This document shows, one piece after another, positions 2,565-46,300 of a DNA stretch of 64,000 nt. The position numbers and the translations under genes were made by a program. The notes under the pieces were generated by a model. That model ran no database searches and had not been told where the DNA came from. It was given only the letters and a program-made list of their open reading frames with translations. The DNA is from Lytechinus pictus (lineage: Eukaryota), in contig NC_087251.1 of the NCBI RefSeq assembly GCF_037042905.1, positions 36,954,001 to 37,018,000 of the forward strand. Reading direction: 5' to 3'. Every line of letters starts with the position of its first letter. The stretch's first letter is position 1.

Positions 2565-2902
2565 TGAAAGTCCATCCCAATAAAGAGTTGATTTGAATTG
2601 TATGAATAATACAATAAGCGAGGAATCTCACTGTGTTTCACTTTATATTGAAGATAAAATGAAGATATTTCATATTTCAAATATTAACATACAAAAGAAA
2701 TAGTGATTGTATGATGTCATCGATTCCCTCATTCGTATCCCAACCAGGATTTGCAATATAACTCTCGTGTGAAATTAATAAAAACTTACAATTTCATACC
2801 TTTCTCATTTTAGATCCGTTTTGAATGAAATTTTCAACGTTACACTTTGATTTGACTTTCTCTTTTAATTCAAACCAACTTCTGGTTGGGGTGGACTTTT
2901 AA
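2565..2902. mobile_element. Kolobok-like MITE
   Basis: AAGTCCATCCCAA...TTGGGGTGGACTTTTAA. Confidence 0.6.
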
Positions 2903-4480: not shown

Positions 4481-5143
4481 TAATTTTATCCAACACCTAC
4501 ATACTGTATGTTGCGTATTATTATATCCAAAAATTTCAGGAAATCAGATTTCAACAATTTCCCCTTCCACTTCTTTTCTGGGTCATGGAACTTCTGATGA
4601 TCAGGTACCCCCCCCCCCCCTCTCTACGCCAGGGTCATTTACCCATTCTGAACTCTGGTTTAAGTTGAACCGTTGCTATTATTTTAGCTTTCAAATCTTA
4701 AAGGAAACCATGAGAACTCAAGAAGAGAAGCAATCCTATTGGAAAGAGTAAAACAAGAGGAACAATTTAAAACAATTATTTTCATCAAAATTGGTTATGA
4801 ATGTTTTAAAAGTCTTGTTATATTTTCTTTGGGAATCCTCAAATTGGCCACCATGCTTCAAAATCACAGATTTTTGGACAACTGTATTTCCCCATTATCT
4901 TTCAAACTGCATCCTCCTGAGCATAACATATGTCATGGAAAAGTATAATTCACACCAAGTATGACAGGTCAGAAGGAGATGATGTGAAATATGTAAAATT
5001 TGTGTATAACACAAATGGAGCAATGTCCAGGAAATCAGCCATTATGTTTGCCAATTTGAGGAGTACAAGACTTCAAACTTCCATGTATGATTCCATAACC
5101 GAGTTTGATGAATTTATTCTTTTTGATAAGATGGATTCTCTCA

Positions 5144-5533
5144 GTTCACCCTGACAAAGAGTTTATTGTAAAGAATTAAAAAAAATTGGTAAAGGTTTGA
5201 GGAAAATCCAAAGAATAAAACGAGCTATAAGAATTTTAATTATTTGATTTGTGACATTGTATGCGAGCAGCTTTCCTACATATCATATGGTAAAAAATAA
5301 ATGAAACATTTTTTCAGAAAATTGTTTTTATTGTACCTTCAGTATTTAAATTCACAAATTATTCCTAAAAAATAAGTCATCACGAACCATTAGCAGCTGC
5401 TTGTTTATGACATCACAAATCAAAAACTTGAAAAACTGTCTTAATCTTTAATGGATTTCTTTAAACCTTCACCAATATTTGTCATTTTTTCTGCTCTTTT
5501 TACAATGTTTTCGTAAGGGTGAACTTCCCATTG
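5144..5533. mobile_element. Kolobok-like MITE; an uninterrupted relative of the copy split inside the foldback element
   Basis: GTTCACCCTGAC...GTAAGGGTGAAC inverted ends. Internal match to 24743-24899 and 31416-31646. Confidence 0.6.
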
Positions 5534-18092: not shown

Positions 18093-18376
18093 AGGGTTTA
18101 TGTTCAATTGGCCTAATGCCAGTTTGTCCACTATCCATATGGTCTAATTGCCATTTAGTCCACTCACCATTCCATCTAATAACCAGTTGGCCCAATAGCC
18201 ATTTAGTCCATGTACCATTTGGTGTAATTGGACTAAAAAATGAATATTAGACCAACTGGTTATGAGACGAAATGGCCATAAACAAACTGGTGATTAGACA
18301 AAGTAATTATTAGACCAAATGGTTATTGGACCAAATGGTTGTTAGACAAAATGTTGGACAGAATGGCATTAGACTA
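18093..18376. mobile_element. Foldback-like MITE fragment with short inverted tandem repeats, abutting the 1-kb array
   Basis: CCATTTAGTCCA/GGTCTAAT-type repeats followed by inverted TAGACCAAATGG repeats. Confidence 0.6.
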
Positions 18377-21300
18377 GATATGAAATTACTTTAAAAACAA
18401 GGTTAGGTGTTCTTACAGTATCCAGAAAATCTATTTAAAATTCAGTACTACACCTTGATATGGTGATGAGCATGGAGCATTACACATTTTGGACTATTGA
18501 ATGTTGTTGACAAGGCTCATACCTACATGGAGTAATATACTTTGTACCTCATATGAGACCAATGTCAACAAAGTGGGTGTATACCTAGTGCCAACTTAGT
18601 TACCTAAAACTTCCTTGTTGTTGTTCCTGGGCTGAGTAGATAATCATGGTCATGGTTGATGACATCACAGTGCTTTCTTCCTGCTATTGATTGCGCTAAT
18701 TCCAGTCCTGTGATGTTCTGTCAATTTCATCAAAACTCAGAGACAATCTCCTGTTCGGGAGAGAGACAAATTGGTGCCAAATAAAAATGTGATAAGCAGA
18801 TACCTTATGAAAAAAATACCATGTTCATCTCTCTACATGTACTTAAAATATTCATAATATACTTTTGTTTTCAGAACATCTTTTGTTATCATCTATACAC
18901 AAAAAGAAATTGGATTTTGACCTGTGCCACTGTGGGACAAAATATTAGATGGAAAAATTTTGTTTCTTTTACGCTTTTGCAAATCAAGTCTTATATTTGG
19001 AGACTGCCTCCCATATTATCAGAGATTTTCAGATACTGGCTGTGCACTTCTACTCATTGTTGATGTATGAGTGGGATATCACACACCTTGTTCACCTTGC
19101 CAAAGGGAGGATCCTCATAGCATCAACATTCTTGGCATTCAAATGATCATAATGATATACATCCAACTTTCTTCAAGCTACTTGTCCAAACTTTATCCTT
19201 TGATTAAAATTCTATTTCACACTAGTAAGCTCACTTCACAATTTTTCACGTTGTTCAAATTCCACAGGTAGAGTTGCCAGATAATCATTTTTAATAAAAA
19301 ATTTATTCCCTAAAATAAGAAAATTCATATCAGGCAATATTGTCCCAAGTCCATGTTTAATTCTTTCCTGATTCAAATGAATTTACTTGATCTACTTTAG
19401 ATATGAAATGACTACACCCATCAAGCAAGGTTAGGTGTTCTTACAGTATCCTGAAAATCTACTTAAAATTCAGTACTACACCTTGATATGGTGGCATATA
19501 TGGAGCATTACAAATTTTGGACTATTTGAATGTTATTGACAAAGCTTGTACCTACATGGAGTAATATACTTTGTACCTCATATGAGACAAATGTCAACAA
19601 AATGGGTGTATACCTAGTGCCAACTTACCTACAACTTCCTTGTTGTTGTTCCTGGGCTGAGTAGATAATCATGGTCATGGTTGATGACATCACAGTGCTT
19701 TCTTCCTGCTATCGATTGCGCCGATAAATCCGACAGTCCAGTGATGTTCTCTCAATTTCATCAAAACTCAGAGACAATCTCCTGTTTGGGAGAGACAAAT
19801 TGGTGCCAAATAAAAATGTGATAATCAGATTCCATATGAAAAAAAATACCCTGTTCATCTCTCTACATGTATTTAAGATATTCATAATCTACTTTTGTTT
19901 TCATAACACCTTTTGTTATCATCCATACACAAAAAGAAATTGGATTTTGACCTGTGGGACAAAATATTAGATGGAAAAATTTTGTTTCTTTTACGCTTTT
20001 GCAAATCAAGTCTTATATTTGGAGACTGCCTCCCATATTATCAGAGATTTACAGATACTGGCTGTGCACTTCTACTGATTGTTGGTGTACGAGTGGGAAA
20101 TCACACACCTTGGTCACCTTGCCAAAGGAAGGATCTTCATAGCATCAACATTTTTGGCATTCAAATGATCACATTGACATACATCCAACTTTCTTAAAGT
20201 TACTTGTCCAAACTTTATCCTTTGATTAAAATTCTTTTTCACACAAAGCTAACTTCACAATTTCTCAAGTTGTTCAAATTCCACGGGTAGAGTTGCCAGA
20301 TAATCATTTTTAATAAAAAATTTATTTCCTAAAATAAGAAAATTCATATCAGGCAATATTGTCCCAAGACCATGTGTAATTCTTTCCTGATTCAAATGAA
20401 TTTACTTGATCTACTTTAGATATGAAATGACTACACCCATCAAGCAAGGTTAGGTGTTCTTACAGTATCAAGAAAATCTAGTTAAAATTCAGTGCTACAC
20501 CTTGATATGGTGGCATATATGGAGCATTACAAATTTTGGACTATTGAATGTTATTGAAAGGCTCATACCTACATAGAGTAATATACTTTGTACCTCATAT
20601 GTGACCAATGTCATCAAAGTGGGTGTATACCTAGTGCCAACTTAGTTACCTAAAACTTCCTTGTTGTTGTTCCTGGGCCAAGTAGATAATCATGGTCATG
20701 GTTGATGACATCAGTGTTTCTTCCTGCTATCGATTGTGCCGATTAATCCGACAGTCCTGTGATGTTCTGTCAATTTCATCAAAACTCAGAAACAATCTCC
20801 TGTTTGGGGAAGAGACAAATTTTTGCCAAATAAAAATGTGATAAGCAGATTCCATATGAAAAAATACCCCGTTCATCTTCTACTTAAAATATACTGTTTT
20901 TATCAATATAAACAAAACCAAATGGGCTTACTGTTGATGTAGTTTCTATTCAATTTTTGCAAAACAAGTTTCAGATTAGGAGACCATCTCCCATATTCAT
21001 CAGAGAGTCTCCAATACTGACTGTGCACCTATACTCATTGTTGATGTATGAGTAGGAAATCACACCTGAGGATCTTCATAGCATCAACATTCTTGGTATT
21101 CAAATGATCATATTGACATACATCCAACTTTCTTAAAATTACTTGTCCAAACTTAATCCTTTGATTAAATTTTGTTTTCACACTGTAAGCTAATTTTACA
21201 ATTTTTCAAGTTGTTCAAATTCCACGGTTGCCAGATAATCATTTTCAAAACAAATTTTATTCCCTAAAAACAGAAAATTCATATCAGGCAATATTGTCCC

Positions 21301-22503
21301 AAGTCCCTGTTTAATTCTTTCCTGATTCAAATGAATTTACGTGATCTACTTTAGATATGAAATGACTAAACCCATCAAGCAAGGTTAGGTGTTCTAAAAT
21401 GATCCAGAAAATCTAGTTATAGTTCAGTGATATACCTTGAAATGGTGGCATACATGGTGATTGACAAATTTTGGACTATTTGAATGTTATTGACAAAGCT
21501 TGTACCTACATGGAGTAATATATTTTATACCTCATATGAGACAAATGTCAACAAAATGGGTGTATACCTAGTGCCAACTTACCTACAACTTCCTTGTTGT
21601 TGTTCCCGAGTTGAGTAGATAATCATGGTGATAGTTGATGACCTCACGTTGTTCTTCCTGCTATTGACTGCGCAAATAAATTCCAGTCCTGTGATATCCT
21701 CTCAATTTCATCCTGTTTGGGAGAGAGATAAATTGGTGCCAAAAAATTGTGATAAGCAGATTCCTTATTAAAAATTACCCCTTTCCTCCATGTACTTAAA
21801 ATATTCATAATCTACTTTTGTTTACATAACATCTTTTGTTATCATCTATAATACTCTATACACAAAAACAAATTGGATTTTGACCTGTGTGACAAAATAT
21901 TAGATGGAAAATTTTGGTTTCTTTTATGCTTTTGCAAATCAAGTATTATATTTGGAGGCTGTCTCCCATATTATCAGCGATTTCAGATACTGTCTATGCA
22001 CCTCTTCTCATCGATGATGTATGAGTGGGATATCACACACCTTCATAGCATCAACATTCTTGGCATTCATATGATCATATTGACATACACATCCAACTCT
22101 CTTGAAGTTGCTTGTCAAAATTTTCTCAAACTTTATCCTTTTTTCTGCTGCACACTAGCTAACTAAATAAGTTATCAGGTTGTTCAAATTCCACAGGTAG
22201 AGTTGCCAGAGTAATATTTTTTATTTTCTAAAATCAGACAATTCATATCAGACAACTTTGTTCCATGTCCCTGTGTAATTTTTTTTCCTGATTCATATGA
22301 ATTTACATCTACTGTGGATATTAACTGACTAAACATATAAAAGAAGGTTTTAATAGTATTCTAATAGTATCCAGAAAATCTAGTACAAATTCAGCATTAC
22401 ACCTTGAAATGGGGCGTACATGGAGCCTGACAATTTTTTTACTAGGTTGAATGTTGTTAACAAGTCTTGTCCTGACATTGAGTAATATACTTTGTATCTC
22501 ACA
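18375..22503. repeat. Tandem array of ~0.94-1.02-kb units (about 4.2 copies)
   Basis: The unit start TAGATATGAAAT..CAAGGTTAGGTGTTC recurs at about 18375, 19398, 20417 and 21352, with a diverged partial copy at about 22315. Confidence 0.95.
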
Positions 22504-24262
22504 ATGTTACGCCGCACAAGTCACCCAGTGAAAATTTCTGTTGAGATATGATGGACATATACTGGCTTTGTTGAGTTGAACTTGATTGGAAAATTACTTC
22601 ATTTTTGCATCGAAAACTCAATGAATTCAAACAGCTTGTTTCCAGATATCTCATGAAGATATGAACATATTTGTATTTGCATTAGAAATATGACAATCAT
22701 TTGACAAAGGGGTCTACCCCGATCCTTAAAATTATTCTGCATTTGTGACAATATTGTCAAAAACATTAGAAAATCTTGTCACCTTCTAATCAAGGATCAT
22801 GAAATTGCACACATCTACAAACAAATTAGTAAATGTGATTCCAACCCTTTTTTGACAAAATATCTGTCTCGTTCGTTCTCCTTCTTTCAAAATTGAAAAC
22901 AAATGGCCGATCGATACCGCGCGACGAACGCGACATGGAGATCTAACTTTTCCTTTTTTGAGGGTCCAGTTGGTGCCTGTATGTCAAGATTCTGTGTCAC
23001 GATAGACCTTCATCCATATAATTTATTTTTCCCCCTTTTATTTGGAGTGCTAAATTGCGACCCCGTTCTACCCCATTTTGGAGAGTACCCGATGTCTGCT
23101 TAGTATTACACAGAAGAGTCCTGGGTTAGACTTGGTCTTGCTTCACTACACCTCATCAATAGACTCAAATTTTTCATCCACTCTGTACCGGGTGCCTATG
23201 GCTATGCCCCAAAATTAATTAAGCCAAACTGTATTAATTTTCAAAATAAAATAAAATTTTTAATAAAATAAAGTCAAAGAGGTGTCTAGGTCTTTGTATA
23301 ATTTTTTTTTTATTTCTTACCCTGAAAAAGACCTGAATCTGCTGTTTTGGTCTAAAAAAAAGAGAGAATTATTCTTCTTCCATTGAGTAGTCCTCTTTGT
23401 AGAGTATAGTCTTGAGATATTATCATTGACTTATTGCATTTTTAGGTGCATGATTCATGAATAGACCACAGTTCAACTGGAGTAAATCTAGTCTAAGTAC
23501 CTGTTTTCATTTTATTTAAGTTAATGTAGGTCTAGGTCTATATTTTTGCCAGCATAATATTTGAACAATTAAAATCATCTTGGGCCTGGCACAATAGTTT
23601 GTAGTAGTCTAACGTTAGCTTGTATAAAAATTACAAATCCCTGTGGCCATGGATTGGGGGGGGGGGATAAAAAATACATGGCCCTGCTGGGGACTAGTAC
23701 TAATACTATTACTCGGTCCTCACACTAACTGCGTGCATGATGGCTAGCTGTCTCTGACTCTGTCTTAGACAGCTGGGAGCCGTCTGCTTCGAGGAGTTTT
23801 TTAACATTTTTTTAAATTTCTCCACGTACGTACACAGCCACCATTAGGGGGTTAAAAATGCAAAATACCCCAGACAGGGCTCATCGATTTTTGTCTTTAT
23901 TTCATAAAAATGTATGAAACGAACTGGACCAAAATAAAGAATATTGGCCTGAAATGCACCAAAAAGGGGAAAAATAAACTTAAAAGGACAAAAAAAAATC
24001 AGTGACTTTCTTCGGCTGTTGCACAACTTCACTTCCCTGGTTTATCCGAACTTGATACATAAACATATGGCCATTGAGTCCCTGTACAGATCGAATTAGA
24101 TCTTCGATCTCTGTATTGTAATTGGTGAGTGGAGCGAACAGAGTTCAGTGGAACAACCAATAAAACAGAGTCCGAAGCTTTTGGTCTAACTCTGTCTGTG
24201 ACTGTCTGACTGTGTAGGAGGAAAAGTCTATGTCAAAAAAGTTGACAAAACGGCTCGGTTTT

Positions 24263-24480
24263 AAAAATGGCAAAGGTAAAAATGGCAAAGGTAAAAATGA
24301 CGAAGGTATAAATGACAGCAGTAAAAATGGCAGAGGTAAAAATGGCAAAGGTAAAAATGGCAGAGGTAAAAATGGCAGAGGTAAAAATGGCAAAGGTAAA
24401 AATGGCAAAGGTAAAAATGACGAAGGTATAAATGACAGCAGTAATAATGGCAGAGGTAAAAATGACAGAGGTATAAATGG
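24263..24480 (+). repeat. Left arm 15-bp tandem array with a 120-bp (8-unit) higher-order period
   Basis: The variant pair AAAAATGACGAAGGT-ATAAATGACAGCAGT recurs exactly 120 bp apart. Confidence 0.95.
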
Positions 24481-25110
24481 TCAGTCTTAAACCCCAATGC
24501 CAAAAAATTCAAAAAGCCCCTCCATGCAATCAGTAGATTAAATACGGTTCTGAGAAGAAAATTGGAATTATGTTTGACTAATGGAAAGGGTAACATTTTT
24601 AAATGATATTGTAGGTCTTCTGCACCAAATTGGTAACACTTGAGTTGGTATTTCTTATTGTTTCCTGGACTTACATGCACGGCCTTCTCAATTCAAATTT
24701 GAAGCACACTTTGGATCCCAAGTGTTATACTTAATTCAGTAGGGGAAATTCACACTGATATAAAGTTTATTGGAGAAATAGCAGCAAATAATTAAAATGA
24801 TATTGGTGGGGGTTTTAGGGAATCCATCAAAGATTTAAAAAGCTATTAGAATTTTACATTTTAACGGTGACGTCATTTGCGAGCAGTTTTTCCCACATAC
24901 CGTAAGGGCGCTAGTATACACCCAACCCAAAAAGTACCTCGCTGAGGTCAATGACCCATTCTTGACCGGCCTAGTTCCGTAACGCGTACTCTAAATTTGA
25001 TGCGCATCGGCACACTTATGCCTGTAGCATAGTTCTGTACGCACACCGCATTGCACATCGTACATACGAATAATTGAATAGAAGAAATCGAGTGAAATCT
25101 TACCTTTCAG

Positions 25111-25145
25111 ATACACTTTGCGACGAAGTTGGTGTTTCCAGATTG
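25111..25145 (+). other. Probable 5' UTR exon of the transposase gene
   Basis: Preceded by CCTTTCAG and followed by a GTGAGT donor at 25146. A matching acceptor, TTTCTCCCTTAG, ends at 26599, 3 nt before the ATG. Lies in a CpG-enriched stretch. Confidence 0.5.
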
Positions 25146-25534
25146 GTGAGTAACTTATAAATATTCAATTTTTATGTAATTTTTTAGTCCAAAATATGTT
25201 AAAACGCTTAGTCTCGCCCATCAGGGGGAGCACGGGTTCTGTAGGTCTAGACTAGTCGCCTTTCTTATCGATAATGGCCGTTTCGTTGTTGTTAGCACTG
25301 ATCGAAAGTGAACGTACACGGCGAGATGGCGCTCCTCTAGTATCCGCCCAGCGTATGATTTAGCTTTGCTTTTGGCAAAGGGCCAATGGCAATGCAGGAT
25401 ATATGTATATTCTAGATCTATTAATTGATTGATTTGGAAAATGTACTTGTACTACAGTCAGCTTTAGTTTCACCGGTGATTACTCCATGATGAAAATAAA
25501 GGAGATTATGAGATATGTTAAGAATATAAAAGTG

Positions 25535-26575
25535 ACTTGATGATGGATGATTATGATGGTGATTAACTGACTATGGATAATAATGATGATGATGATGATG
25601 ATGATGGGGATGATGATAGGTGATGATAATAATTTCATGTGAATATGTGATGATGACAATGATGACGATGATGGTGGTGGATAATGATGATAATTTGGCG
25701 ATGATGATGATGGATAATGAAGTGATGGATAATGATGATGATGATGTTGATGATGATGATAATAATAATTTCATGATGTGATAATAATGATGATGATGAT
25801 AGAAGATGATGAATGATGGTGGTGGTGGATAATGATGATAATAATTTGGTGATGATAATTTGGTGATGATGATGATGATGACGAATTGACGATGATGGTG
25901 ATGGATGATGATGATGTTGATGATGATGATAATAATAATTTCATGATGTGATAATAATGATGATGATGATAGAAGATGATGAATGATGGTGGTGGTGGAT
26001 AATGATGATAATAATTTGGTGATGATGATGATGATGACGAATTGACGATGATGGTGATGGATGATGATGATGTTGATGATGATGATAATAATAATTTCAT
26101 GATGTGATAATAATGATGATGATGATAGAAGATGATGAATGATGGTGGTGGTGGATAATGATGATAATAATTTGGTGATGATAATTTGGTGATGATGATG
26201 ATGATGACGAATTGACGATGATGGTGATGGATGATGATGATGTTGATGATGATGATAATAATAATTTCATGATGTGATAATAATGATGATGATGATAGAA
26301 GATGATGAATGATGGTGGTGGATAATGATGATAATAATTTGGTGATGATGATGATGATGACGAATTGACGATGATGGTGAATGATGATGATGATGACGAT
26401 GATGATGATGATAGAAGATGATAAATGATGGTGGTGGTGGATAATGATGATACTAATTTGGTGATGATGATGGATAATGATAATAATTTCATGATAATAA
26501 TAATTTGGTGATGTGATAATAATGATGATGATGATGGTGGAAAATGATATTGGTGGATAATGATGACTTGATGAT
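25535..26575 (+). repeat. Degenerate (GAT)n satellite with a ~160-175-bp higher-order repeat, in the putative 5' UTR intron of the transposase
   Basis: GAT/AAT/GGT triplets. Landmarks such as TTTCATGATGTG and GACGAATTGACG recur periodically. Confidence 0.95.
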
Positions 26576-26602
26576 GAACAAATTCTATTTCTCCCTTAGA
26601 TC

Positions 26603-29600
26603 ATGCCCCGTGCTCCTAAATGGAAACAGGACGACGTAGCTGCGGCGTTACGTAGAGTACGGTTCAGTGAGCTTTCGATAAGAAAGGCTTCACAGGAATA
26701 TAGAATTCCCTACGAAACCCTGCGTGACAAAGTATCAGGGAGAGCTCCGACATCGGTTTCGAGATTCGGTCCACGACCATTCCTCACAGAGAAGGAGGAG
26801 GAGGAGATAGTACGATGGACGATCAAGATGGGGAGAATCGGTTTTGGACAAACCAGGGGAGACATTCAGTCCGTAAGTATGCAGAAAAATTTTCTTCCTG
26901 ATGCTTCGTGAAAGGTCGAGTCCATCCTAGAAAAATGTTGATTGGTAACAATAAAGAACAATCAAACAAAAATATCGCTGAAAATATAATCGTTATCGGA
27001 TGTAAAATAAGGAGGTTATGATATTTGTAAGTTTCACTTATTTTTCACAAAACAGTTTTATGCACAACTCAGTGACATGCATGCAAATGAGAGAGTGGAT
27101 GATATCCATCACTCACTATTTTTTTATTGTTTGAATTATGTCAAATTACAGATTTGACAATTAGGACCAACTTGACTGAACCATAAAATGATAACAAAAT
27201 TGAATTAATTCTACATATTCTTGGATGAATAAAACTTTTTGTTTCACGTAAGAATGAGAAGAAAATGAAATTATTTCATATTTCATGCACATTACATAGT
27301 GAGTGACGTTATCAATCCCCTCATTTGCATACTGACTGGACCAGGATGTGCATTTAACTGTTTTGTGACTGAAATTAAAGAAAAAAAATAAAATGTTTTA
27401 TTTTACATCCAATTTTGATGAAATTTGACTTTTCTCCTATTATTTGAATAAACTTCGGGTTTGGGTGGACTTGTCTGTCATTAACAAAACCAATTTCATC
27501 ATGTAGCTAACGTGATAAATCGATAAGAATGTTGCAATTTTGGTAATGCTGCTTAAGGGCTACTACTTTTCTTACTGTTATTACAACAACAATAATAATG
27601 ATAGTAAAAATTGAAATAATATGAATGGTAATGATAATAATAATAAAAACAATGATACTAATAGTTATAATGGAAGATAATTTTTGACAATTATATTTGT
27701 TATATAGATTATAATGCTATTAACACAGCTAATAATACAATAAATTAAAATAAAGACATATAAAGTAATGAAGAATAATAATTGTATAACACTATAAATT
27801 ATTCATTAGCTCTTACATGTAACTGTTAAAAAAGAAAAGGAAATATTCCTCATAACACCATGATCTTTCAAGAAAATTGCAGAAAGGTATTTAATCCACT
27901 CAAATAAAGATGGAGAATAAAATGAAAGTCTTTGCTTTTCTTGTTATTCAGGTCGTGAAGAAAATGCTTGACAAAGATGGCAGGGCAAACCCCTTTGTAG
28001 AAAACAAGCCTGGGAAGCGTTGGTGGAGCAGTTTCCGTGCAAGGCACCCTCAATTAGTTTTCCGGAAGCCACAACCAATTGGAAAAGAGCGTACAGCAGT
28101 TACAAAGAATCGAATAGACAAGTATGTCTTCACAATTATATATATATTTCTGTTAAAATAGGTTAAATACAGACCGAGTATTCTTTTTTTAATAACATGT
28201 TGCCATTATATCCTTCTTTCCTTTTTCTTCTTCCTTTTATTTTTCTTGTTCCTATTATTTTCTTCTTATTCTTCTCCCTTTTTTCATTTTCTTCTTCTCC
28301 TGTTTCTTCTACTTCTTCTAGGAAACGAGTCACTTTCCATGATAATATTTTGCCCAAGATTTTCATCAAGATTTTCATGAATGGCATAATCCTAGTTGTT
28401 GTGTGTTTGGACAATCAATTTTTAAACAGCCATTTGGAAAAAGTAACCAGCTAAGTTTCATTCATTTTTGGTACAAAATTAAATGGATGACAATAATATA
28501 TGGAACAAATTACTGAAATAATATTTTGTGTGTGTGTGTTAATCAAAAGACAAAAATAAGGCTTCAAAATATTAAAATGTCTACACCCAACCCCCATCAT
28601 ACATGCAAGTCATTAATCAAATACATATGAGTGAAGGTGTTCCACATACCTTTGTGTTTCTCCCTCATTCACAGATGGTTCAAAGAATTGGAAGAATTCT
28701 TAGGAGAAAACAATGCAAGAAGCATTCTCGATGAGCCAAATCGACTCTTCAATGCCGACGAATCAGGATTCCCGCTTGGTGGGAGAGCATCTGATCGGGT
28801 ATTGTCATTAAAAGGCGAGAAAGTCATCCAACAATTTAAGAATGCTGAAAAGGGACAGGTAACTGTGCTTGTCACTGCATGCGCGAGTGGTAGCTTTTTG
28901 CCACCAATGATTGTTTTACCGGGGCGACACGGTGACGGTTCTGCATACCAAGGAGCGCCAAGGGGTGCTTTCTTTGCTAGGACCAAAAACGGCTGGATGG
29001 ATAGCAAAGCCTTTTATGGTTTCATTGCTAATCTTTTCCAGCCGTATTTGGTCCAGATGAAAGTACCCCTTCCAGTGCTCCTGCTCGTCGATGGCCTTTC
29101 GGCACATCAAACGCTGGAGGTAGCGAAGCATTGTGAGGCGAATCGGATTCTTTTGTACCGATTCCCTCTCAATGCTACGCACATCCTCCAGCCGTGCGAT
29201 GTGTCTGTGTTCAGATCATTAAAGGCATCGTGGAATCGAGCGGAGGAGCAGTTCCGTTACCAAAACCCCGGTGATTATGTCACAAGAGTGACGTTTTCGC
29301 GCGTGTTCGCCGGCGCGTGGAAGGAGCTTCTGGGGAAGCCAGAAATTGCATCTTCTGGTTTTCGGGCAGCAGGGATCTACCCGTTTACGAAATTGTTTCG
29401 TGAAGAGCTACTACGTCCAGCAGACTTGTACAGTTTCATAGATAAGAATCCTCAAGAAGGAGAGACACCATCATCTAGGAATAGTGCTTTTATTCCGGTA
29501 GACGATGACATGAGGTCATCTCAACCCGATGAACCTGATGATGATGCACCATCTTCGTCATCAGCTCATCGGGAACATGGAGTCAGCTGCATCGTGGATA

Positions 29601-30236
29601 CTTCCGAGTATCCATGGTGATGCTCCATGTGGAGACAGGCCTCTAAACGAGGCATTCATCTCGCCGTCGCTAGATGAATGCCTCGTTTATCCCGAGATTG
29701 AAGTCTCAAATCAAAGGAGAAGGAAAAGGCAACTGCCTGAGGCAATAAGTGGAGAGGCGTTTATAAGATTCGCCGAGGAACGAGCGAGAGAGAAAAGAGC
29801 GGAGGAGGAGAGGAAAAAACAGAGAAGAGAGGAACGGGAACAGAATAGAGTGGAAAAAGAGAGAAGGAAGGAAGTTGAAAAGGAGAAGAGGCGAAAACGA
29901 CAACAAGAACTTGAGCAGAGGAAACTAGAACGGGAGAGGAGAGTAAGAGAGAAGTTACAGCGGATGAAAGAAGTGATTGAGAGGAAAGCGAGAGAGAAGA
30001 AAGAAAGAGAGGCAGAGAGAGAGAAAAAAAAGGGCGGTAAGAGGAGAGAGAAGAGTGTGAGGGTGGATGATGATGACGATGATGTGTATGTATGCCCTGA
30101 ATGTTTGATGATGAATGATGATGAGTGGATTGGATGTGATTACTGTATGGCGTGGGTACATCACAAGTGCTCTGCTCTTTGTGATGTACCAATTGTAGAT
30201 GTAAATAAGTATATGTTTAAGTGTAATTTCTGTTAA
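26603..30236 (+). CDS. pogo/Fot-like DD35D transposase (HTH-psq, CENP-B-type HTH, DDE_1, coiled coil, C-terminal PHD-like finger); spliced, with one apparent frameshift near 29530-29620
   Basis: Exons 26603-26872 (GTAAGT donor, phase 0), 27952-28121 (GTATGT donor, phase 2) and 28675 onward join in frame. N-terminus KWKQDDVAAALRRVR..LSIRKASQEYRIPYETLRDKV is psq-like; PGKRWWSSFRARHP is CENP-B-type HTH. Catalytic motifs are FNADESG, LLVDG and QPCD, with 35 residues between the last two Asp. The frame stops at 29620. The overlapping frame 29529-30236 supplies a K/R/E coiled coil and CPEC..WIGCDYC..WVHHKC..CNFC. Confidence 0.9.
26909..27484. mobile_element. Kolobok-like MITE in the first coding intron of the transposase
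   Basis: Termini AAAGGTCGAGTCCATCC...GGGTGGACTTGTC. Internal similarity to the copy at about 2565-2902. Confidence 0.65.
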
Positions 30237-31642
30237 AATTTAATAGGTATAAGTTATGTTATGTCAAAAAGTGCAATTTCTCTTACATGAGCAAGTCTGA
30301 TGGTGACTATACTCTGAATATATAATATAACCTCTGCAATCTAATGTAGTGTAAAATGTAAACTATTCTATAGCTCTATCTCTACACCATTCTCTAATCT
30401 AGACTCCAATCTCTATATCTGCAATCTATTCTGTAACCATGCAATCTATATTATGAATTGGTTTCAGAAGTTCTCTAACCCCTTTAATAATTGTTCTGGT
30501 CAAGACTTTACAGCCAAACAGGTTTTTGACAACCTTGAATGCTTGACCAAAATATAATTATTCTGAATTGGAGGGAGTTGACCTTTTAGGGAGAAGATGA
30601 AATATAGTGAATAAGAAACCGATTTATGTGCGTGCGTCAAAAGTTTAGCTGGAAGAAGAATGAGTAATACTTTCTTAAGAAAGATGGAATTGATAGACAT
30701 ATAGTTTCCTGTTATACTTCTTGTAAAAGATTTGATTAAGTATTGATTATGTATTGATATGTTATTAAATATGTATTGATTTGTTTTTTAATATATTGAA
30801 TATGTGAGATATCATCACATAACAATATATTCATCCGTCATGAACTTGTTTCTGCTATAACTGGAAGATTCCTGCTGCTCGGTTGGCATAGCGCAGTTAC
30901 CTGTCCCCTTTCTCTTTTGTTTTTTTTCCCCCGAAATGTATTAAAGGGGAGTATCTGCTTTAACATGTTGGTCTTTCTAGCAAGAATAAATTATTAAAAG
31001 GCTTCTACATCAATGCCAATATTTGTTAACATTTACATTTTATGTATAACTGTTAAATGTGATTATTTTCAAAAAGAAAAAAAAGGCTTCTACCGTGATG
31101 TATATTATTTTGCTTGTCGTTTGAATTCTTTTAAGTTTATGACGTTTGTTGATAGAGAGTGACATGAAAGTAAACTATTTTTGGGAGCATGAGGAGGAAA
31201 ATACGTAAATAGGCCTATATAATGAAGACTATATGACACTTATAATAAAAACCAAATCAAATAAAGAGCAAAAGAGGTGAAATATTTAATGAAGGGGGAT
31301 GTAGGAGGTGGAGGAGGAGAAAAAAATAGCGAAAAACAAGAAGAAAAACGTGGTATACCAATGGCAAAGAGAATTGGCATTAAAAGGAAGAATGATAATT
31401 AATGAGACAAAATGGTATGGTGTAATAAAAAAAAATGAAATGTCATTTTTTTTTTTTTTTATGAAAATGGTTTTTATTGTACCTCAAGTATATCAACATA
31501 CAAATCATTTCACATCTGCTCCTGAAAGAATTTTTTTTGGCAATCATGAACCACTGATTAAAAAATTGAGAAGAAGGACTCTAGGAGCCTATCTATATAA
31601 TATATTTTGGTGGATAAAATACGTGGCAGCTGCTAGTATACG

Positions 31643-31792
31643 ACCTCTGTCAATTTAACCTCTGCCTTTTTTACCTCTGCCATTTTTTTTACCTCTGCCA
31701 TCTTTACCTCTGCCATATTTACCTTCGCCATTATTACCTCTGCCATTTTTACCTCTGCCATATAATCATATTACCGTACCTTTGCCATTTTT
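31643..31792 (-). repeat. Right arm 15-bp tandem array, inverted relative to the left arm
   Basis: Repeated ACCTCTGCCATTTTT-type units. Confidence 0.95.
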
Positions 31793-32844
31793 ACCCGGCA
31801 CTGACAAAAACTGCACAAATAAAATGAATCAGGTTAAAGATAAATACCTCCTTAATAATATTGCTCAATGCTGAATCTAACATGATGATGGTCGGTCAGC
31901 ACGGGCTCAAATGTAAAGTTCAGGGTCAGCTGCTCACGACTCGACTAGTATTACTATTAGTAACGTTAGAGTCAGGGATCCGCGGCCGAATTAGAAGCGG
32001 GATTTTGGAAGGAATTGCTCTGGAGCATGCACGGGGATCCAGCGGCCCAGACCTGTTGCGTTGAGAGCCCGAGTGGCATGTCTATCCGCTCAAATTTCCG
32101 AGGTCGTGGAGTGGCAGGCTATACTGGTTCGCCTGCTATTGGTAAAATCAGACCAACTTGGAATATACAAGAGTACCGGTAATGCTGTGTAGGTCTACTG
32201 ATACGTTTTTAAACATCAAATCTAGCCCAAATTTCTACAAAATTAACAGAAAAGTTCATCAATTCGAAATTCCCGCTGCGAGTACGAGGCCCCATTTTTT
32301 CCCCTTGTGAACGAAGGTATCCGACATCTAGCCATCAACGAGAAAAGAAAAATTACCTGTTTAAATCATTAATGTTCCTGTTATTATAGTTCCCACTGTC
32401 ACAAATGATTTAAAACAAAATTGATATCTGGAGTCCAATGCAGCTTCCAAAATAGGCTTGCACTATAAATTAATGAAATCTTGTCTTTTCTTAAGTCGGC
32501 ATATGCAGATATAAGTTAGTTAGAGATATAGACAGATTTCTGGTAGATGCTGATAAAACAAATAGTCTATTTGAAATTAAAGGAAAAACGATAGAATTAA
32601 GACAGTCAAAATATAAGAAAACTTTTTTTTTAAAATCATTATTAAAATACTGATTCACTTCACTCTCCTTATAATTGCCATCACCTTCATTACCATTAGC
32701 ATAAATAAGGAGATTCAGATTTTTCATTCATCATGACACAGAATAACTGGATTGGATATGGTGAAATTTAATTTGCTGCCCATGAATACGAGTGTCATTG
32801 GTAAAGAAATCCAGAGCTCCCCATTATCACAGTCATCAGGTGTC

Positions 32845-34030
32845 TTCATCATAATCATCATCATACATCCTTCATTATCATCATCATTATAACCTCCATT
32901 ATCATCACCAACAACATAACCTCCACCATCGTAAACATAACCTACATTACATCCTTCATCATCATGAAAACCTCATTTATCCTCATCACCATAACCTCCA
33001 TCATCATCACCAACACCTTCATTACTTACATCCTTTATTATCATTATCATCATCATTATAACCTCTGTTATTATCATCATCAACACCATCAACATAACCT
33101 TGCTTCATTACATCATTCATTATCATCGTTATAACCTCCATTATCATCAACACCATCAACATAACCTTGCTTCGTTACATCCTTCATTATCATCATCATT
33201 ATAACCTCCATTATCATCATCACAACCACCATCATCAACACCATCAACATAACCTTGCATCATTACATTCTTCACTATCATTATAACCTCCATTGTCATT
33301 CATCATCATCATGTACTTCATTACATCATCATTATAACCTCCATTACCATCACAACCTCCATCAACATAACCTTGCTTCATTACATCCTTCATTATCATC
33401 ATCATCATTATAACCTCCATTATCATTCATCATCATCATATTATACAAATAATGCATGCAGCCGAGTGCGTTAGTGGAAATGCAGAGCACGCAAGGTTTC
33501 TTTAGATAGGTGCCGCACTGTGCACGAGCCGCTTGTGGCGAGTGCCCAGTGTGCTCCATCTGAAGAAACCGAGCTTTCTCTGCATTTACTTTTACGCACG
33601 ACAGAGCAAGTGCATTATTTGTTTTATAAAATAGCAACACAGAAATTTTTTTTTTTAAAGTTACAGTACAGTTTTGTTGGACTTCTACCGCACTGGTTTG
33701 CTTGAGCGTGCAATGTCAATTTTCTTTGCGCACCTTTTGCACTGCCGTGCAGTGCACAAAAAAAGTTGGATGTCATGTGACGCGTATTGGCCAATCGCGA
33801 TGCTTGAAATAATACACATATTTTATAAACTTCATTACATCATCATCATTATAACCTCCATTACCATCACAACCTCCATCATCAACATAACCTTGCTTCA
33901 TTATAACCTCCATTATCATCATCACAATCACATCCTGCATTATCATCATCATTATAACCTCCATTATCATCATCATCATATACTTCATTACATCATCATC
34001 ATTATAACCTCAATTATCACCATCATCATC
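32845..34030 (+). repeat. Degenerate (CAT)n-rich minisatellite
   Basis: Recurring ATTATAACCTCCATTATCATC and CAACATAACCTTGC units. Confidence 0.95.
33441..33828. mobile_element. Palindromic non-autonomous element (Crypton-like) inserted in a (CAT)n satellite
   Basis: Imperfect palindrome centred on GAGCCGCTTGTGGCGAG. TTATA at both ends. The satellite resumes on both sides. Confidence 0.6.
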
Positions 34031-35689
34031 TCATTCTGGTTATAAATTCTTTTAGAAATCTTATTAAAATTCACGTTGCAGCCAGTTGGCTACATGGATA
34101 AAAAAAAAACTAACCAAAAATGGGTCAAAATTTTTCAGTGAATCAGAATTTTTGGTCACAGAAGACGTGTAATGGGCATAAATTTATTTACCGGTACTCA
34201 GCCATATGATTTAAGACTATTTCAGACAGCATGAATAACAAACTTTGCTCTTTGCCATTCAAATGCAAGTTAGACTTTCATAGTGATATCAAATCGATTC
34301 ATAAAATTTTCTCCTGATTTCCAACAATTCTAATGGCTATACTAATTCTGTATTATCTTCACTCACCCTTATTTTTTACATTCCGTTCATATAATTCAAA
34401 ATTGGTCTTCCATATTCTCGATTGTAAGTTGGTATACTGAAATATTGTACATATAAACTGTATTTATATGGCTATGATTTTTTACATTTTGTGAATTTAT
34501 GAATGAAGTTGCAATCAATTAAACGATATATATATATCTTTCATGATATTGAGTCATAAATATTTTGGATATGAATGATCTGATGAGAAATTTCTAGACA
34601 TGTCATAAAGCCTATTACATCTACAATCTTTTGCTACTTGTATAAATAATACATGCTTGACAAAGAAAATATATTATATCATAATATATTTGACACTATA
34701 TGGATACACATAATGCACATTTACAAAATAAAATACATTTATACATATATATCTGCAAGTAACATAAAATCTATACGACACCAAACACTAAGAAACTTGC
34801 TTTTTAACAATATCAATACTATATTTTTTACACTAACATTTTTAAAAGGATTTTTAAAAGAGACAACTTATTTTTAAATGATTAAATATGAAATTCATCA
34901 ATATCAGGTAATAAAAACATTAAATCCAAAAAGAATATGAATGTAAAAAATATATATAAAATACATGTCATAATCCAATATCACTTGGAGTATATGAAAT
35001 AATCAATTGCTGGTCTAATGAATGTTACAATTTCAAAAGTACAGTAGAGCCAACTCTTACATGTTTGTAGTTATCACAGTCAGTATCCAAATTGTACTAA
35101 AAGCCTTCACTCATCCAAAACTGCAATTAGAGAACGCTCACACTACACAAGCAAATGTGATTGGATTTGAAAAGAAATTGCATGAGCACTTGATACATGA
35201 ACATTCCAACCTATAAAATCTGAATGAACAAAGTTCTGAATAGTGATATAGATGACAAAATAAAAATTCCAGTGTGTTACAACTTACAAGCCTCCCCATA
35301 GGAATAAAAAACAAATTCACTTCCAAACAGGGGAATGGTTATTACATCATCATCAGCTGCAACTTGAAGTCAATTTGGGCTTTACTCCGACCGAAGTACT
35401 GGAGCAAAGCAGAATTCTGATTTTAGTATTCCTAGCAAAGCTAGTATGGCAAACTTCAAATATATCTTTACTTTTTGGAACTTTCATATTTAATGCACAA
35501 TGCGATTTGTTAAAAATTGTGTTGTAGGCGGATCGTGTAAGTGTGCGAAGAATCTGTGCGCAATAAGGTTGATTTCTGCAAATATCTTCTGTGCCATGGG
35601 TGAGAAATCAAAACCTCCTTATTAACTCCCAAGAATTGCTTAACGAATTAATCTGTTATAATGATAGTAATAATGACAATGATATCTGT

Positions 35690-43300: not shown

Positions 43301-46300
43301 TAATACCAGTGATTATTACCAGTCTATGTACCATACTTTCTATGCAGTACTTGTATAAATCTACCTTGTACATGTACATGTAGTCAAAGTCCATCCATAG
43401 CTAAGCAATACTCCACTACAAGGACAGCTCTCTAAAAAGACATTTTATTCAAGTCAGGTCAGGAGACTCTTCTCTCTGTCCGCAATATTTACACAATTTT
43501 CCCAAATTGAGACAAATAAAAATAAAAGGCAGGAAGTAGAAAGGCGATTCCTTGATTTCATGATCGTTCACTTCAGCAAACAACTTCCTCAACAGGACTG
43601 TATATTACAATCATCAGAAAAGCTGTACCACAAAAGTGACTTAATACACATGAGACCTAACCTTTGTACCTGTTCCTTTGTGGACACACTCTTTGCCATA
43701 AAAGGCTATCATGTCAGAGAGATTTCAAAGACAAACTATCAAATAAGACAAGGTAAAAAAAAAAAAAACGAGCTGCAAGTATAGTGTTGGGAAGAGTTGA
43801 TGTTTCTTCAAAAGATACATGTATGTTTTTTAAGAATAGGTTGGATCTCTAATCAGACACGTTTCCTGTTTGGACATGCAGTGATGATGTATAAATCAAT
43901 GCATGCCATGGCATTAACACACTGAAAAAATAATTTAAATCATGTCATCTCACTACATGATCACAGTACAAGACATTCTGCAACCCTAAATTAATGCAAT
44001 ATAAGCACATACATGTACATACTCCTATAATGTCAGGAATTACAGTATGGAACCAACTTAAAAGTTCTCTTGAAATGTCACCTACTTTACAAAGTGTTAA
44101 ACACACTCTTAAATCTTTACTAACTGCAGATGAGGTGTAAATGAATTCCTTGAGTAAACATGCATATTCAACATTTAAAAAGAAACCATTCATATGTCAT
44201 TTTTTTCAAACAAGGTTTACTTTTTGGATAATTTGGTTTATGATTTTTCTTTCAAATTTACTTCATATCATTCTACGTTAGTTAAAAAAAAAATCAAAAT
44301 TCAAAAGTTTAATTAAAATCGTCAAAGTTGAATATCACATGAGTATATTTAACAAGGTTGCCAATAATAATTATTTCATACATGTTTATATTCTTCTGTA
44401 TAATTTATGTAGAAATTGTTTATTACTATGTCATAGGGGGGGGGGGGACCAGTAATCTCTTGTCTCAATCATAATGTTGGCTTTTCAGCCTACATGTATA
44501 GGGTCTAATCAAACTTAATTTATATGCCAATCATTTTGTATACATGCATGCTAAATCATTTATTGCACAGCGCCCTCTTCATTCAGATTGTGTCAATCTG
44601 GGCAGGTGCTCACATTTAATTATTATTTGAAATAAATTTTTTTTCTCGTGAGCTCTACTTCTACCCAGGTTGACACTTCTTCTTTTTAATTCTTGATTTG
44701 ATTCTAATTTAATTTGTTGTCATCTTCAACAACTATATAGTTGTATTTTACTATTTTGTAGTACATGTATGTATGTTATCTTTGTAAAGTCACATGGATT
44801 GGAAAGGAAGACCTTCGGGTTATAGTTATTTAGTTAATCTTTTTCCTTTCCCGGCATCCATGTGACTCTCCTATTCCTATTGTTTGTATATGTTGTTTAT
44901 GTATTTGATTATGCCGAATAAAATAATAATAATAATAATAATAATATATTTTTCATTACTTGTTTATTATTACTGCAATTTGTTGCCACCCTGTATAAAG
45001 ATCAGAAAAATGAATAAATGAATAAATTACGCAATAATTAAATAATAAATAAATAAATTAATTAATTGATTAATTTAAAAACATTAAAAAATAAATACAT
45101 TAATAAACATTAAAAAAATAAAAATTAGATAAATAAATAAATAAATAAAAATAAACAAATGTGAACACATGACATTGCATCTGATTGGCCAGAACAAATA
45201 AAACTGAAAATCACTATTTGCCAAAAGAAACACTCCCGTGATCCACCACTCACACATAGATAGCCCTAATATTCGAATTACATTCACTTTGTGCCTTTCC
45301 CAATACAAGCGCTGCCAATGTTCATTGTCATGGGAGGCTTGTTGGTCCACCACTATTTCCTTGGACATAGCATGCACTGTAAGAATTGAAAAATTTAAGA
45401 CATCTTTCTCCAAGGATGATGAATTCCAATCGCAGGGAAGAATAAAGATTAATCAAGAAAGCAAGCAGTAAAACCAAAGGAGATCTGTATTCTGTAGTAT
45501 TAAAATGTGGTTGGTTATCACAGTGAAAGAGAAACACTATAAAGAATGCAAAGTACTGAGTACACTGTGGTGGACCAAATATCTCAGGATTAGCAAGAAT
45601 GAGTGGTGTCTCAATTAGGGTGCAACTTACCCAAATGTCTTGTAAAATGCAGACAATTTATCTTAAAATGTAACTTACTTGGAGGCTGCCGGTTTCTTAA
45701 TGGCCATGGAGCTGCTTGCAGCTGCAGTTAATTTCTTACTGGGTGAACTCACTGCTGCACTTGTTGTAGGGCGCTTCTGAGAATCCCTGGAATCATGCAT
45801 AGTACAAAAACAAATATAAAATCATAAGAATACAAGCTAAATCTCGAGACAATTATTCACATTAAACCTGCATAAATCATTTACTAACATGCACTGTTTG
45901 GAGAAATCCTTCAGAAAATTTTTAAGTTCACACTCAGACAGCATCATAAAAAAACTTGCCTTCTATACATGCATCTGATAAGCATAGAAACACCTAGGTA
46001 AGTGATCTGCGCTATGCAAGCACCGATGTACATTAATGGATAATTTCCTTATCTTTGTTTTTTAACAAAAATTTCACCGTAACTGTAGTATAGGGAAGTA
46101 TATTCTTTGATAGCAAGCCAGCGCCGTTTTATAACAAGTGGAATGCCTCTGGCCGTCTCACCTGCATCACGCGATTCAATATAGCAGCAGTGCTGATTTT
46201 GAAAACTACTATAACTCGCACAAGATGTTCAGTGATACTTGGTTACTCTTATTTCCACGTTTTATGAACTAGACCAATACACTTATAGAGATATGATGGC

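Follow-up and report, generated by a model that had tools for sequence, protein, structure and literature searches.

A frameshifted pogo-type transposase gene with one recognisable end, nested between two pieces of a MITE in the sea urchin Lytechinus pictus

Results

We analysed a 64,000-nucleotide stretch of Lytechinus pictus DNA (hereafter the window; contig NC_087251.1, positions 36,954,001 to 37,018,000) and found that a 6.5-kb pogo-type gene, with three coding exons and one frameshift, lies between two pieces of a single MITE. This nesting is real: the MITE is split, the inserted element has a pogo-type left end and no right TIR, and its paralogues elsewhere diverge from it at 31412. The case is most likely one of ordinary nested transposon decay and not the birth of a new element, with pogo insertion followed by loss of the right end in the window copy as the probable course of events.

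A single MITE split by the transposase segment

That one MITE flanks the transposase segment had been proposed in the initial annotation, and alignment to an uninterrupted family member, the 5144 copy, bears this out. The left piece aligns over 5145-5282 with 106 of 134 aligned columns identical (79%) and the right piece from 5286 on with 68 of 93 (73%), at local scores of 111 and 78 against shuffle maxima of 47 and 58 (300 shuffles each). The features of the split are as follows.

5143..5531, + strand: reference copy of the MITE family, uninterrupted and near-palindromic
24741..24899, + strand: left MITE piece, ending in the target TA at 24898-24899; its left end was earlier placed at 24743
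31413..31415, + strand: junction TGG, which on the best reading is filler or a diverged MITE TCA and on a rival one a CpG-decayed CGG element end
31416..31646, + strand: right MITE piece, with a clear match to ~31515, a weak middle and a match that resumes at 31621-31646 before the arm cuts it

The MITE is indeed cut off at the right 15-bp arm; it stops at ~5412 of the reference copy, so that ~120 nt are missing. The outermost left bases are absent from the 5144 copy. The family may be Kolobok-like, as the initial annotation had it; TTAA adjoins the ends of neither window MITE copy, and both copies are decayed. A TTAA target-site duplication appears in a table of PMC6428116 for a Kolobok element.

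The junction letters quoted earlier are those of the sequence, and of the insertion at a TA proposed with them, the left TA at 24898-99 is supported as the site and a clean TA duplication is not confirmed. The reference MITE reads CCTACATA-TCA-TATGGT at the junction site, and set against it the left junction TA corresponds to the first of the MITE's TAs and the right junction TA to the second, so no clean duplication is demonstrated. The two pieces show neither the overlap nor the large gap that would mark independent fragments, being contiguous within 0-3 nt. Of the right-hand rejoining points, 31413 has the highest score, 54; 31418, the point suggested earlier as a check, scores 51 and 31416 scores 49, a small margin on one MITE reference copy. 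At 24899/31413 the MITE closes with no junction gap and without the second TA.

The right edge of the inserted segment, earlier set at 31415, moves to 31412, where matches to copies elsewhere end. Window letters at 31404-31412 are GAGACAAAA, and independent contigs from two organisms end their match at 31412; of the four longest 3' contig pieces listed, two run past it with different letters. Over 30654-31412, X1 record 7 (1519 nt) departs from the window at 9 positions and by 3 gaps, and it carries 759 further letters, none with a listed match; X5 record 15 (584 nt) ends its match at the same base with 71 letters remaining, and its depth of 212 resembles that of the ORF contigs (218-227). Among the 24 matches listed from three contig runs, which held 34,028 shorter pieces besides, none links the MITE or an arm to the 3' region of the transposase. 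The comparison with reads and contigs covered 26600-32700 (the left end lies outside), with sequence differences, coding ones included, taken from 40 of 743 rows and contig pieces from those 24; 20 of 24 small-share runs were left aside.

A spliced transposase gene with one frameshift

The gene and its surroundings comprise the following features.

24926..25145, + strand: putative CpG-rich promoter and non-coding first exon, with a GTGAGT donor at 25146 and a CpG o/e of 1.3
25583..26536, no strand assigned: degenerate (ATG)n array whose higher-order units measure 156/170 bp, placed in the first of the putative introns
26600..26872, + strand: first coding exon, with the HTH_psq domain and an ATG at 26603; a contig piece ends exactly at 26872
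26911..27500 (approximate limits), no strand assigned: high-copy intron repeat, summed depth up to 787,495
27952..28121, + strand: second coding exon, 170 nt
28675..30236, + strand: last coding exon, with the DDE_1 core (DD35D), a charged coiled region and a Cys/His finger
30237..31412, + strand: pogo 3' region, which contains a high-copy repeat at ~30272-30883 and matches other copies as far as 31412

Domain search of the window protein returned DDE_1 (PF03184) with its DDxD triad (E=7.4e-19, 68 bits against a cut-off of 22) and, at the N terminus, the pogo-type helix-turn-helix HTH_psq (E=5.2e-08), but no match to BrkDBD; by count, 35 residues separate the last two aspartates. For a PHD-like finger, the one score over the cut-off came from P0006, the Diadema relative, and P0004 had no PDB sequence match. 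The description of the ORF as almost intact holds only loosely, as a +1 frameshift near 29606 yields a 461-aa product and drops the last ~205 residues. The intron repeat at 26911..27500 appears to be common to other family copies, with organism B contigs at family depth spanning 26600-27056, 27148-27424 and 27397-29046. In the raw RNA run X21, depth over the gene was 0-3.5, without start or end sites.

A pogo-type left end without a right partner

24900..24925, + strand: left terminus of the pogo element, TA followed by CCGTAAGG..., where MITE homology stops; it has no partner in the window

This end begins TA/CCGTA, and CCGTA with TA is a TIR motif tabulated for pogo/Passer elements in PMC7386202, which makes it a typical pogo terminus. 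Its terminal word is CCGTAAGGGCGCTAG, the reverse complement of which, with TA, is the right end expected of a proper TIR pair. As the initial annotation held, no such partner exists: a proper right pogo TIR, whose discovery between 30236 and 31415 would have spoken against that claim, was absent from 30236-31900, where the reverse complement of the first 15 nt was matched at best with 5 mismatches and that of the first 20 nt with 9. The best local alignment of left and right ends scored 18, a value equalled in 194 of 200 shuffles, and no subterminal motif was common to both ends above chance. The inner ends read CCGT and CCAT, agreeing at 3 of 4 positions with TA next to them. The window copy lacks a TIR pair, with a TA preceding its left end and a right TA that aligns with the MITE's own second; PMC7386202 states that one TIR, a TSD and a transposase of at least 300 aa still count as a transposon.

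One candidate pair, a TA-flanked inverted repeat at 25153-72 / 30235-54 (17/20), was nominally significant (2/300 shuffles, 2/280 real pairs), but it was discarded as the element's present boundary, since other copies go on matching for 1.15 kb past it.

A dispersed and recently active Lytechinus family

At the 90% protein-identity level the family has six members, including intact 666-aa models on other chromosomes of L. pictus and L. variegatus, and the occurrence of models on different chromosomes in two species, together with several variant contigs, attests to dispersed copies of a mobile element. LOC129283361 is another L. pictus copy locus, and LOC121421580 and LOC121416151 are loci of L. 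variegatus. A spliced, expressed copy is ~99% identical over the 3' part, from which we take the window copy to be young and its near-intact ORF to reflect recent family activity; the same identity leaves the earlier idea of slow right-end decay around a long-kept ORF unsupported. The spliced contig is a different copy, with 23 differences in the 273 nt of the first coding exon and a departure from the window sequence at 31412. Besides the frameshift, the window copy differs from both intact models at five residues.

Selection was assessed on the 16 listed coding differences only, protein-derived counts being dropped because X1's copy differs from P0004 (29451). Nine of the 16 are synonymous against 23% expected (P=0.004; P=0.026 if the neutral fraction is 0.70), an excess that points to selection on the active lineage.

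Protein-alignment scans kept none of 328 candidates from genome_contigs, none of 12 from viral_contigs and 43 of 588 from metagenomes, all of the latter distant (22-51% in the best segment). TIRs were sought at 36 of the 43 metagenome loci, 29 of which had usable flanks, and among these 29 a CCGT-type TIR was present only in L015, a relative at 31% identity whose 24-bp TIR reads TA/CCGTC... on the left and TA/CGTC... on the right. None of the tested metagenome loci matched the window arm or ends, and the exact 24-nt left-end pattern had 0 matches in metagenome contigs. One metagenome locus carries a 22-nt match to the MITE (E=0.007). A search of listed titles and abstract openings, with Repbase and the subscription literature outside its reach, found no published description of this pogo family; the term 'Lytechinus' had no match in the supplements of PMC7386202 and PMC7325037, nor did CCGTAAGG in that of PMC7325037.

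An outer foldback, probably in a host-gene intron

24243..24250, + strand: TGACAAAA, left-hand member of an 8-bp direct repeat that is probably the foldback's target-site duplication and is the only 8-mer common to both arm flanks
24251..24480, + strand: left foldback arm, 14.6 copies of a 15-bp tandem unit
24481..24740, no strand assigned: unique spacer, foldback interior or captured DNA, with no second match in the window and no right-side counterpart
31643..31801, - strand: right foldback arm, a very high-copy repeat; it falls short of the left arm in length, and its inner end is broken
31802..31809, + strand: right copy of TGACAAAA
31848..32312, - strand: probable host-gene exon, with donor GGAG/GTATTT; the match of X1 record 8 ends at 31847, and the record has another 121 letters

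The two repeat copies agree at 8/8 positions, or 8/9 if extended on either side, and the chance of a shared 8-mer in random 25x25-nt windows is 0.0095. Summed depth on the arms reached 650,716 against ~230 on the ORF in X5, a rough measure. Two hallmarks of MULE-type foldbacks are present, a probable 8-9 bp duplication and long TIRs of 9-15 bp tandem units, and an 8-bp repeat at 15-bp arms fits such an element rather than a TA-cutting enzyme. The exon position suggests that the whole nest lies inside the following host-gene intron.

Discussion

Among known pogo lineages, the window protein shares with the Fot/Fot-like DD35D group, as described in PMC7386202, the DDE_1 core with 35-residue spacing, HTH_psq (the group being defined by DD35D with HTH_psq and/or HTH_Tnp_Tc5) and, at its left end, the TA that is the group's target. 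That group spans 1.2-5.2 kb, whereas the window element is 6.5 kb with introns; its distribution as given in PMC7386202 omits animals, whereas our element comes from a sea urchin, carries a C-terminal PHD-like finger and has one end. The likeness is one of domains. Passer elements (PMC7386202) share the TA/CCGTA terminal motif and DD35D, but are characterised there by BrkDBD and/or HTH_Tnp_Tc5, while the window protein has HTH_psq without BrkDBD, and HTH_Tnp_Tc5 appeared only below cut-off, in P0006.

For the outer unit, the sea-urchin TU elements offer a MULE-type foldback comparison. Inverted arms of short tandem units like its own are described in Muta1/Muta5 of Aedes (15 bp in Muta5; PMC5225508) and in Tm1 of Meloidogyne (13-15 bp, along with nested insertions and truncated TIRs; PMC3169594). 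Like these MULE foldbacks (PMC5225508, PMC3169594), the outer unit has unequal unit numbers at its two ends, an 8-bp repeat on its flanks and short outer termini that do not match; no MULE transposase was found in it, its only large ORF being pogo-type, and the inner part of its right arm is deleted. Animal Pack-TIRs, described in PMC8277862 as foreign sequence between TIR ends, mostly single-copy and with repair-type junctions, are similar, except that the cargo here is another transposon and not a host gene. Here a transposase-type end meets a TA at the left junction, which argues for nested insertion rather than gap-filling capture.

We infer the following order of events, including the repair mechanism and the survival of the right TIR in other copies. 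A low-copy, recently active Lytechinus pogo transposon would have been cut and pasted into the TA at 24898-99 of a resident MITE, itself enclosed by the two arms of a MULE-type foldback that probably occupied an intron of a host gene. The DNA may then have broken at the element's right boundary or close to it, for instance because only one end was cut or because the gap left by excision was incompletely repaired. End-joining would have closed the break at the cost of the right TIR and the duplicated TA, leaving the MITE flank whole to within 0-3 nt and an ATGGT-ATGGT micro-duplication behind; a second deletion would have fused the interior of the MITE with the right arm's inner portion. With one end only, the window copy could no longer be moved by its own enzyme. 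The pogo-type left end and the divergence of other copies after 31412 support the part of this history already proposed in the initial annotation, namely insertion at that TA with the right end missing. Several points weigh against it: TGG/TA at 31413-17 is one CpG-type transition from an expected CGG/TA, and an aligner could stop there; sparing the flank within 3 nt demands a break right at the element boundary; the junction comparison uses a single MITE reference copy; L015 alone among the 29 metagenome loci has a CCGT-type TIR; and beyond 31412 the other copies are known as mismatching lengths, not as sequence.

In one unlikely reading the insertion is complete (24900-31415) and the family's ends are asymmetric, with only TA/CCGT...ACGG/TA in common and the right C turned to T at a CpG. 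The MITE would then have lost one CATAT of a CATAT-CATAT doublet by slippage, and the right end of other copies would read ...GACAAAACGG followed by TA. The three-in-four agreement of the inner ends beside TA fits this, as do the tandem 5-mer in the MITE here and the contigs of both organisms, which stop exactly one base short of the predicted mismatch. X5 record 15, however, continues for its 71 letters at a depth near that of multi-locus ORF contigs (mean depth alone being indecisive), where a contig would be expected to break as copies enter different flanks; two additional coincidences are needed, and TIRs measure 23-93 bp in the pogo table rows of PMC7386202, and 24 bp in L015. That the family transposes essentially without a TIR, with ~99% identical 3' parts on different chromosomes and a complete window copy, is just as doubtful; if true, it would call into question whether Tc1/mariner/pogo enzymes always require two like ends, as the rule has it, since a DD35D transposase would pair and cut two unlike ones. 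It is unlikely that the nest was instead built at a donor site and carried here by a MULE-type transposase as Pack-TIR cargo of a 7.55-kb foldback, its inner history being otherwise that of the preferred reading. The perfect 8-bp repeat beside MITE pieces 21-27% diverged from the 5144 copy suggests as much, and PMC5225508 describes heterogeneous interiors in non-autonomous MULE derivatives and PMC8277862 multicopy Pack-TIRs in animals; yet no listed contig piece from the three runs spans the transposase-MITE junction, divergence measured on a single reference copy may be a matter of subfamily and not of age, the inner end of the right arm is broken, and animal Pack-TIRs are mostly single-copy (PMC8277862).

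An old, fixed or domesticated locus common to the sister species, its right end lost long ago, is very unlikely. Several introns and a CpG-rich 5' region would suit it, as would the truncated L. variegatus model, whose chromosome is close in length (48.7 vs 49.7 Mb), and the sparse X21 reads that keep orientation over transposase and right flank, but the window copy is frameshifted and has paralogues on other chromosomes, its 3' part lies ~1% from another copy against ~3% at the single-copy flank (15 differences/466 nt), and a shared location would date the insertion without proving host function. The end-replacement route to a new autonomous element envisaged in the initial annotation, by which a pogo transposase without its own right end would use the 15-bp arms as termini, we regard as highly improbable. 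The gene does sit between inverted arms, whose unit loosely resembles the repeated L015 subterminal word GGGGTAACATTGATCA (~10/15 letters by eye); against this, the arms are a separate, very abundant repeat bounded by the 8-bp repeat rather than TA, the window copy is frameshifted, no listed contig joins transposase to MITE or arm, and the spliced contig is the other copy that departs at 31412.

On the preferred reading, pogo insertion followed by right-end loss, the locus itself carries little weight: it is a tidy three-layer nesting with one-sided loss, and the pogo copy in it is dead, although the spliced sea-urchin family to which it belongs was recently active. In practice it is useful as a lead to the intact 666-aa Lytechinus relatives and to the expressed spliced copy.

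Nested organization of the locus

The locus is a real three-layer nested insertion, in which a foldback unit (24243-31809) encloses a MITE that is itself interrupted by a transposase-bearing pogo segment. When compared with an uninterrupted reference copy of the MITE at 5143-5531, 24741-24899 matched 5145-5282 (local alignment score 111; shuffle maximum 47, 300 shuffles) and the sequence from 31416 onward matched from 5286 on (score 78; shuffle maximum 58, 300 shuffles), with 106/134 and 68/93 identical columns, respectively. Because the pieces align to adjacent reference stretches, these alignments indicate a single element split in place by the transposase segment, as the initial annotation had proposed. 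The right piece is clear to ~31515, weak in its middle and resumes at 31621-31646, where the 15-bp arm starts; ~120 nt of its right part are missing, in keeping with the suggestion that the MITE is cut off at that arm. The pieces neither overlap nor leave a large gap, and 30236-31415 holds no right TIR, the two outcomes that had been named as contrary to this view. TTAA adjoins neither decayed MITE copy, and Kolobok identity is a candidate label.

The outer unit is bounded as follows.

24251-24480: left inverted foldback arm, 15-bp units
31643-31801: right inverted foldback arm, 15-bp units

The 8-bp direct repeat TGACAAAA bounds both arms; random window pairs share such a repeat at a rate of 0.0095. 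The unit thus resembles MULE-type foldbacks, for which passages in PMC5225508 and PMC3169594 describe 9-15 bp tandem units with 8-9 bp duplications. A TA-cutting pogo enzyme would not generate the 8-bp repeat. In X1, an RNA-like sequencing run, record 8 comes to an end 45 nt beyond the right 8-bp repeat, at a splice donor on the minus strand, and the whole nest therefore probably lies in a host intron. On the minus strand, 31848-32312 is a CpG-rich probable host-gene exon, and record 8 carries 121 letters of the putative next exon. RNA reads of run X21 were sparse over 26600-32311, with the first mate on the plus strand across the transposase and right flank. For most stranded library types this orientation denotes minus-strand RNA; the reads are ~95% alike and have several letters in common with contigs from a second source organism, organism B.

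Elsewhere in the window, four tandem units of ~1 kb (18395-21526; spacing 1028/1019/935; 73-95% alike) adjoin a 16-bp array (18237-18353), and a 163/192-bp tandem repeat family lies at 46169-47019 and forms another small cluster 12 kb further on (59175-59481).

The transposase gene and its family

The pogo coding exons have GT-AG boundaries:

26603-26872: first coding exon
27952-28121: second coding exon
28675-30236: third coding exon

The product carries HTH_psq and DDE_1 (Pfam), and 35 residues separate its last two aspartates. Owing to a +1 frameshift near 29606 it stops at 461 aa; it is identical to RefSeq XP_063957514.1 (Lytechinus pictus). Its 90% protein cluster has six members. Four are from L. 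pictus: the window's own model, an intact one of 666 aa located on a different chromosome (32.99 vs 49.74 Mb), and two that lack contig data. The other two are from L. variegatus (one intact, 666 aa; one of 153 aa). Molluscs, insects and other urchins have relatives further off. Besides the frameshift, the window copy has five residues unlike both intact models. Among 16 listed coding differences between the window and other copies in the sequencing runs, a subset of 743 difference rows, synonymous changes number 9 (P=0.004 for an expected 23%; P=0.026 if the expectation allows for transition bias).

In domains, spacing and dispersal the element resembles pogo-superfamily cut-and-paste transposons, although this copy lacks a TIR pair; we assign it at superfamily level, with Fot-like or an unclassified animal clade as finer candidates. 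No description of this Lytechinus pogo family was found in titles, abstract starts or paper supplements, Repbase being outside the search.

Other copies in sequencing runs

Other copies were compared in 4 of 24 runs, aligned to window 26600-32700. X1 record 1 ends exactly at exon end 26872, leaving 200 letters, a length to which the 170-nt next exon and a 30-nt overlap would add up, and record 3 begins exactly at 28675. The X1 copy differs from the window at 23/273 positions in the first coding exon and at 13/859, 11/1151 and 9/760 further 3'. This divergence, ~8% and then ~1%, identifies it at the sequence level as another, mosaic, very close copy of the pogo element, and its unevenness may reflect recombination or conversion between copies. 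Across 26600-28830 and 28830-31412, where X1 shifts in this way, organism B contigs differ by ~4-5% throughout.

X1 record 7 matches 30654-31412 and continues for 759 letters without a match among those listed. Record 15 of X5, a DNA run, also stops at 31412, with 71 letters left; its depth of 212, near that of ORF contigs (218-227), is ~2x that of both flank haplotypes combined (105 at 32211). Two 3' pieces (X5 record 16 and X6 record 24) break at 31244, their second parts being absent among the matches listed. The transposase-MITE join appeared in 0 of the 24 contig pieces listed, a listing that ends before a further 34,028 shorter ones. Depth, which is not copy number and served only for the contrast between ORF and arm, summed to ~230 on the ORF vs 650,716 on the arm bin. 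Contigs at family depth or of 99% identity extend over the repeats in the intron and the 3' region, so these repeats look like passengers of the pogo family rather than marks of old age in the window copy. The putative first intron also holds a degenerate (ATG)n array (25583-26536) whose higher-order units measure 156/170 bp; this array and (CAT)n-like arrays on the other side (32850-34034) give spurious inverted repeats.

Pogo ends and the right junction

The absence of a matching TIR pair was borne out: across 30236-31900 the best reverse-complement matches to the left end had 5/15 and 9/20 mismatches, and 194/200 shuffles did as well as the best local alignment. The left end itself, TA|CCGTA, appears as a TIR motif with TA in the pogo/Passer listing of PMC7386202. 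Among 29 metagenome loci with usable flanks, only L015, a distant relative, has a comparable end, with a 24-bp TIR; it is a complete 2.5-kb element (470-3002) in which a 16-bp subterminal word, loosely like the window's 15-bp arm unit, occurs six times.

The 10-mer GCTAGTATAC occurs in the same orientation at 24910-24919, near the left end, and at 31633-31642, at the MITE/arm boundary, where it fits MITE sequence with 4 mismatches/22. GACAAAA, the last seven matching letters of the pogo segment (31406), recurs in both outer 8-bp repeats (24243, 31802), probably by chance. An AT-rich inverted repeat (25153-25172 / 30235-30254; 17/20, TA outside both arms) encloses exactly the coding exons, its right arm overlapping the stop codon; matched by 2/300 shuffles and 2/280 real pairs, it may be what is left of an older pair of inner ends, or it may be chance.

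At the split point the MITE reference reads CCTACATA-TCA-TATGGT. TA is present on both sides of the segment, as first described, but on this alignment the duplication is not clean: the left TA is the first TA of the reference and the right one (31416-17) its second. Rejoining 24899/31413 is gap-free, with TGG replacing TCA, and scores 54, ahead of the junction originally suggested, 24899/31418 (51), and of 31416 (49), a small margin obtained with a single reference copy. Positions 31412-31421 read ATGGT-ATGGT, a small tandem duplication such as end-joining repair leaves behind.

Proposed history of the locus

We consider nesting followed by right-end loss and a second deletion the probable history, and it retains the earlier proposal of a pogo insertion at TA whose right end was lost. 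The foldback would have come first, then the MITE within it, then pogo into a TA; a break at the right pogo boundary may have been repaired in a way that cost the element its right TIR and the duplicated TA, and a second deletion would have joined the MITE to the right arm. We infer both the order of events and the repair route.

That the foldback carried the composite here as cargo is unlikely. Slightly less credence goes to a pogo family with only 4-bp end symmetry, the aligner having halted at a C/T mismatch at 31413. This reading merits notice because the contigs of both organisms end a single base short of the CpG site it predicts, but X5 record 15 runs on unbroken for its 71 letters, which counts against this reading because copies entering different flanks should break the contig. 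An old shared or domesticated locus is more doubtful still. The route to a new element envisaged in the initial annotation, end replacement with the foldback arms as new transposon termini, is very improbable, as the arms are bounded by an 8-bp repeat foreign to a TA-cutting enzyme.

Nested and one-ended DNA transposons are commonplace (PMC3169594 on Tm1; PMC8277862 on Pack-TIRs). On the favored reading of insertion, right-end loss and deletion, the locus would represent ordinary decay.
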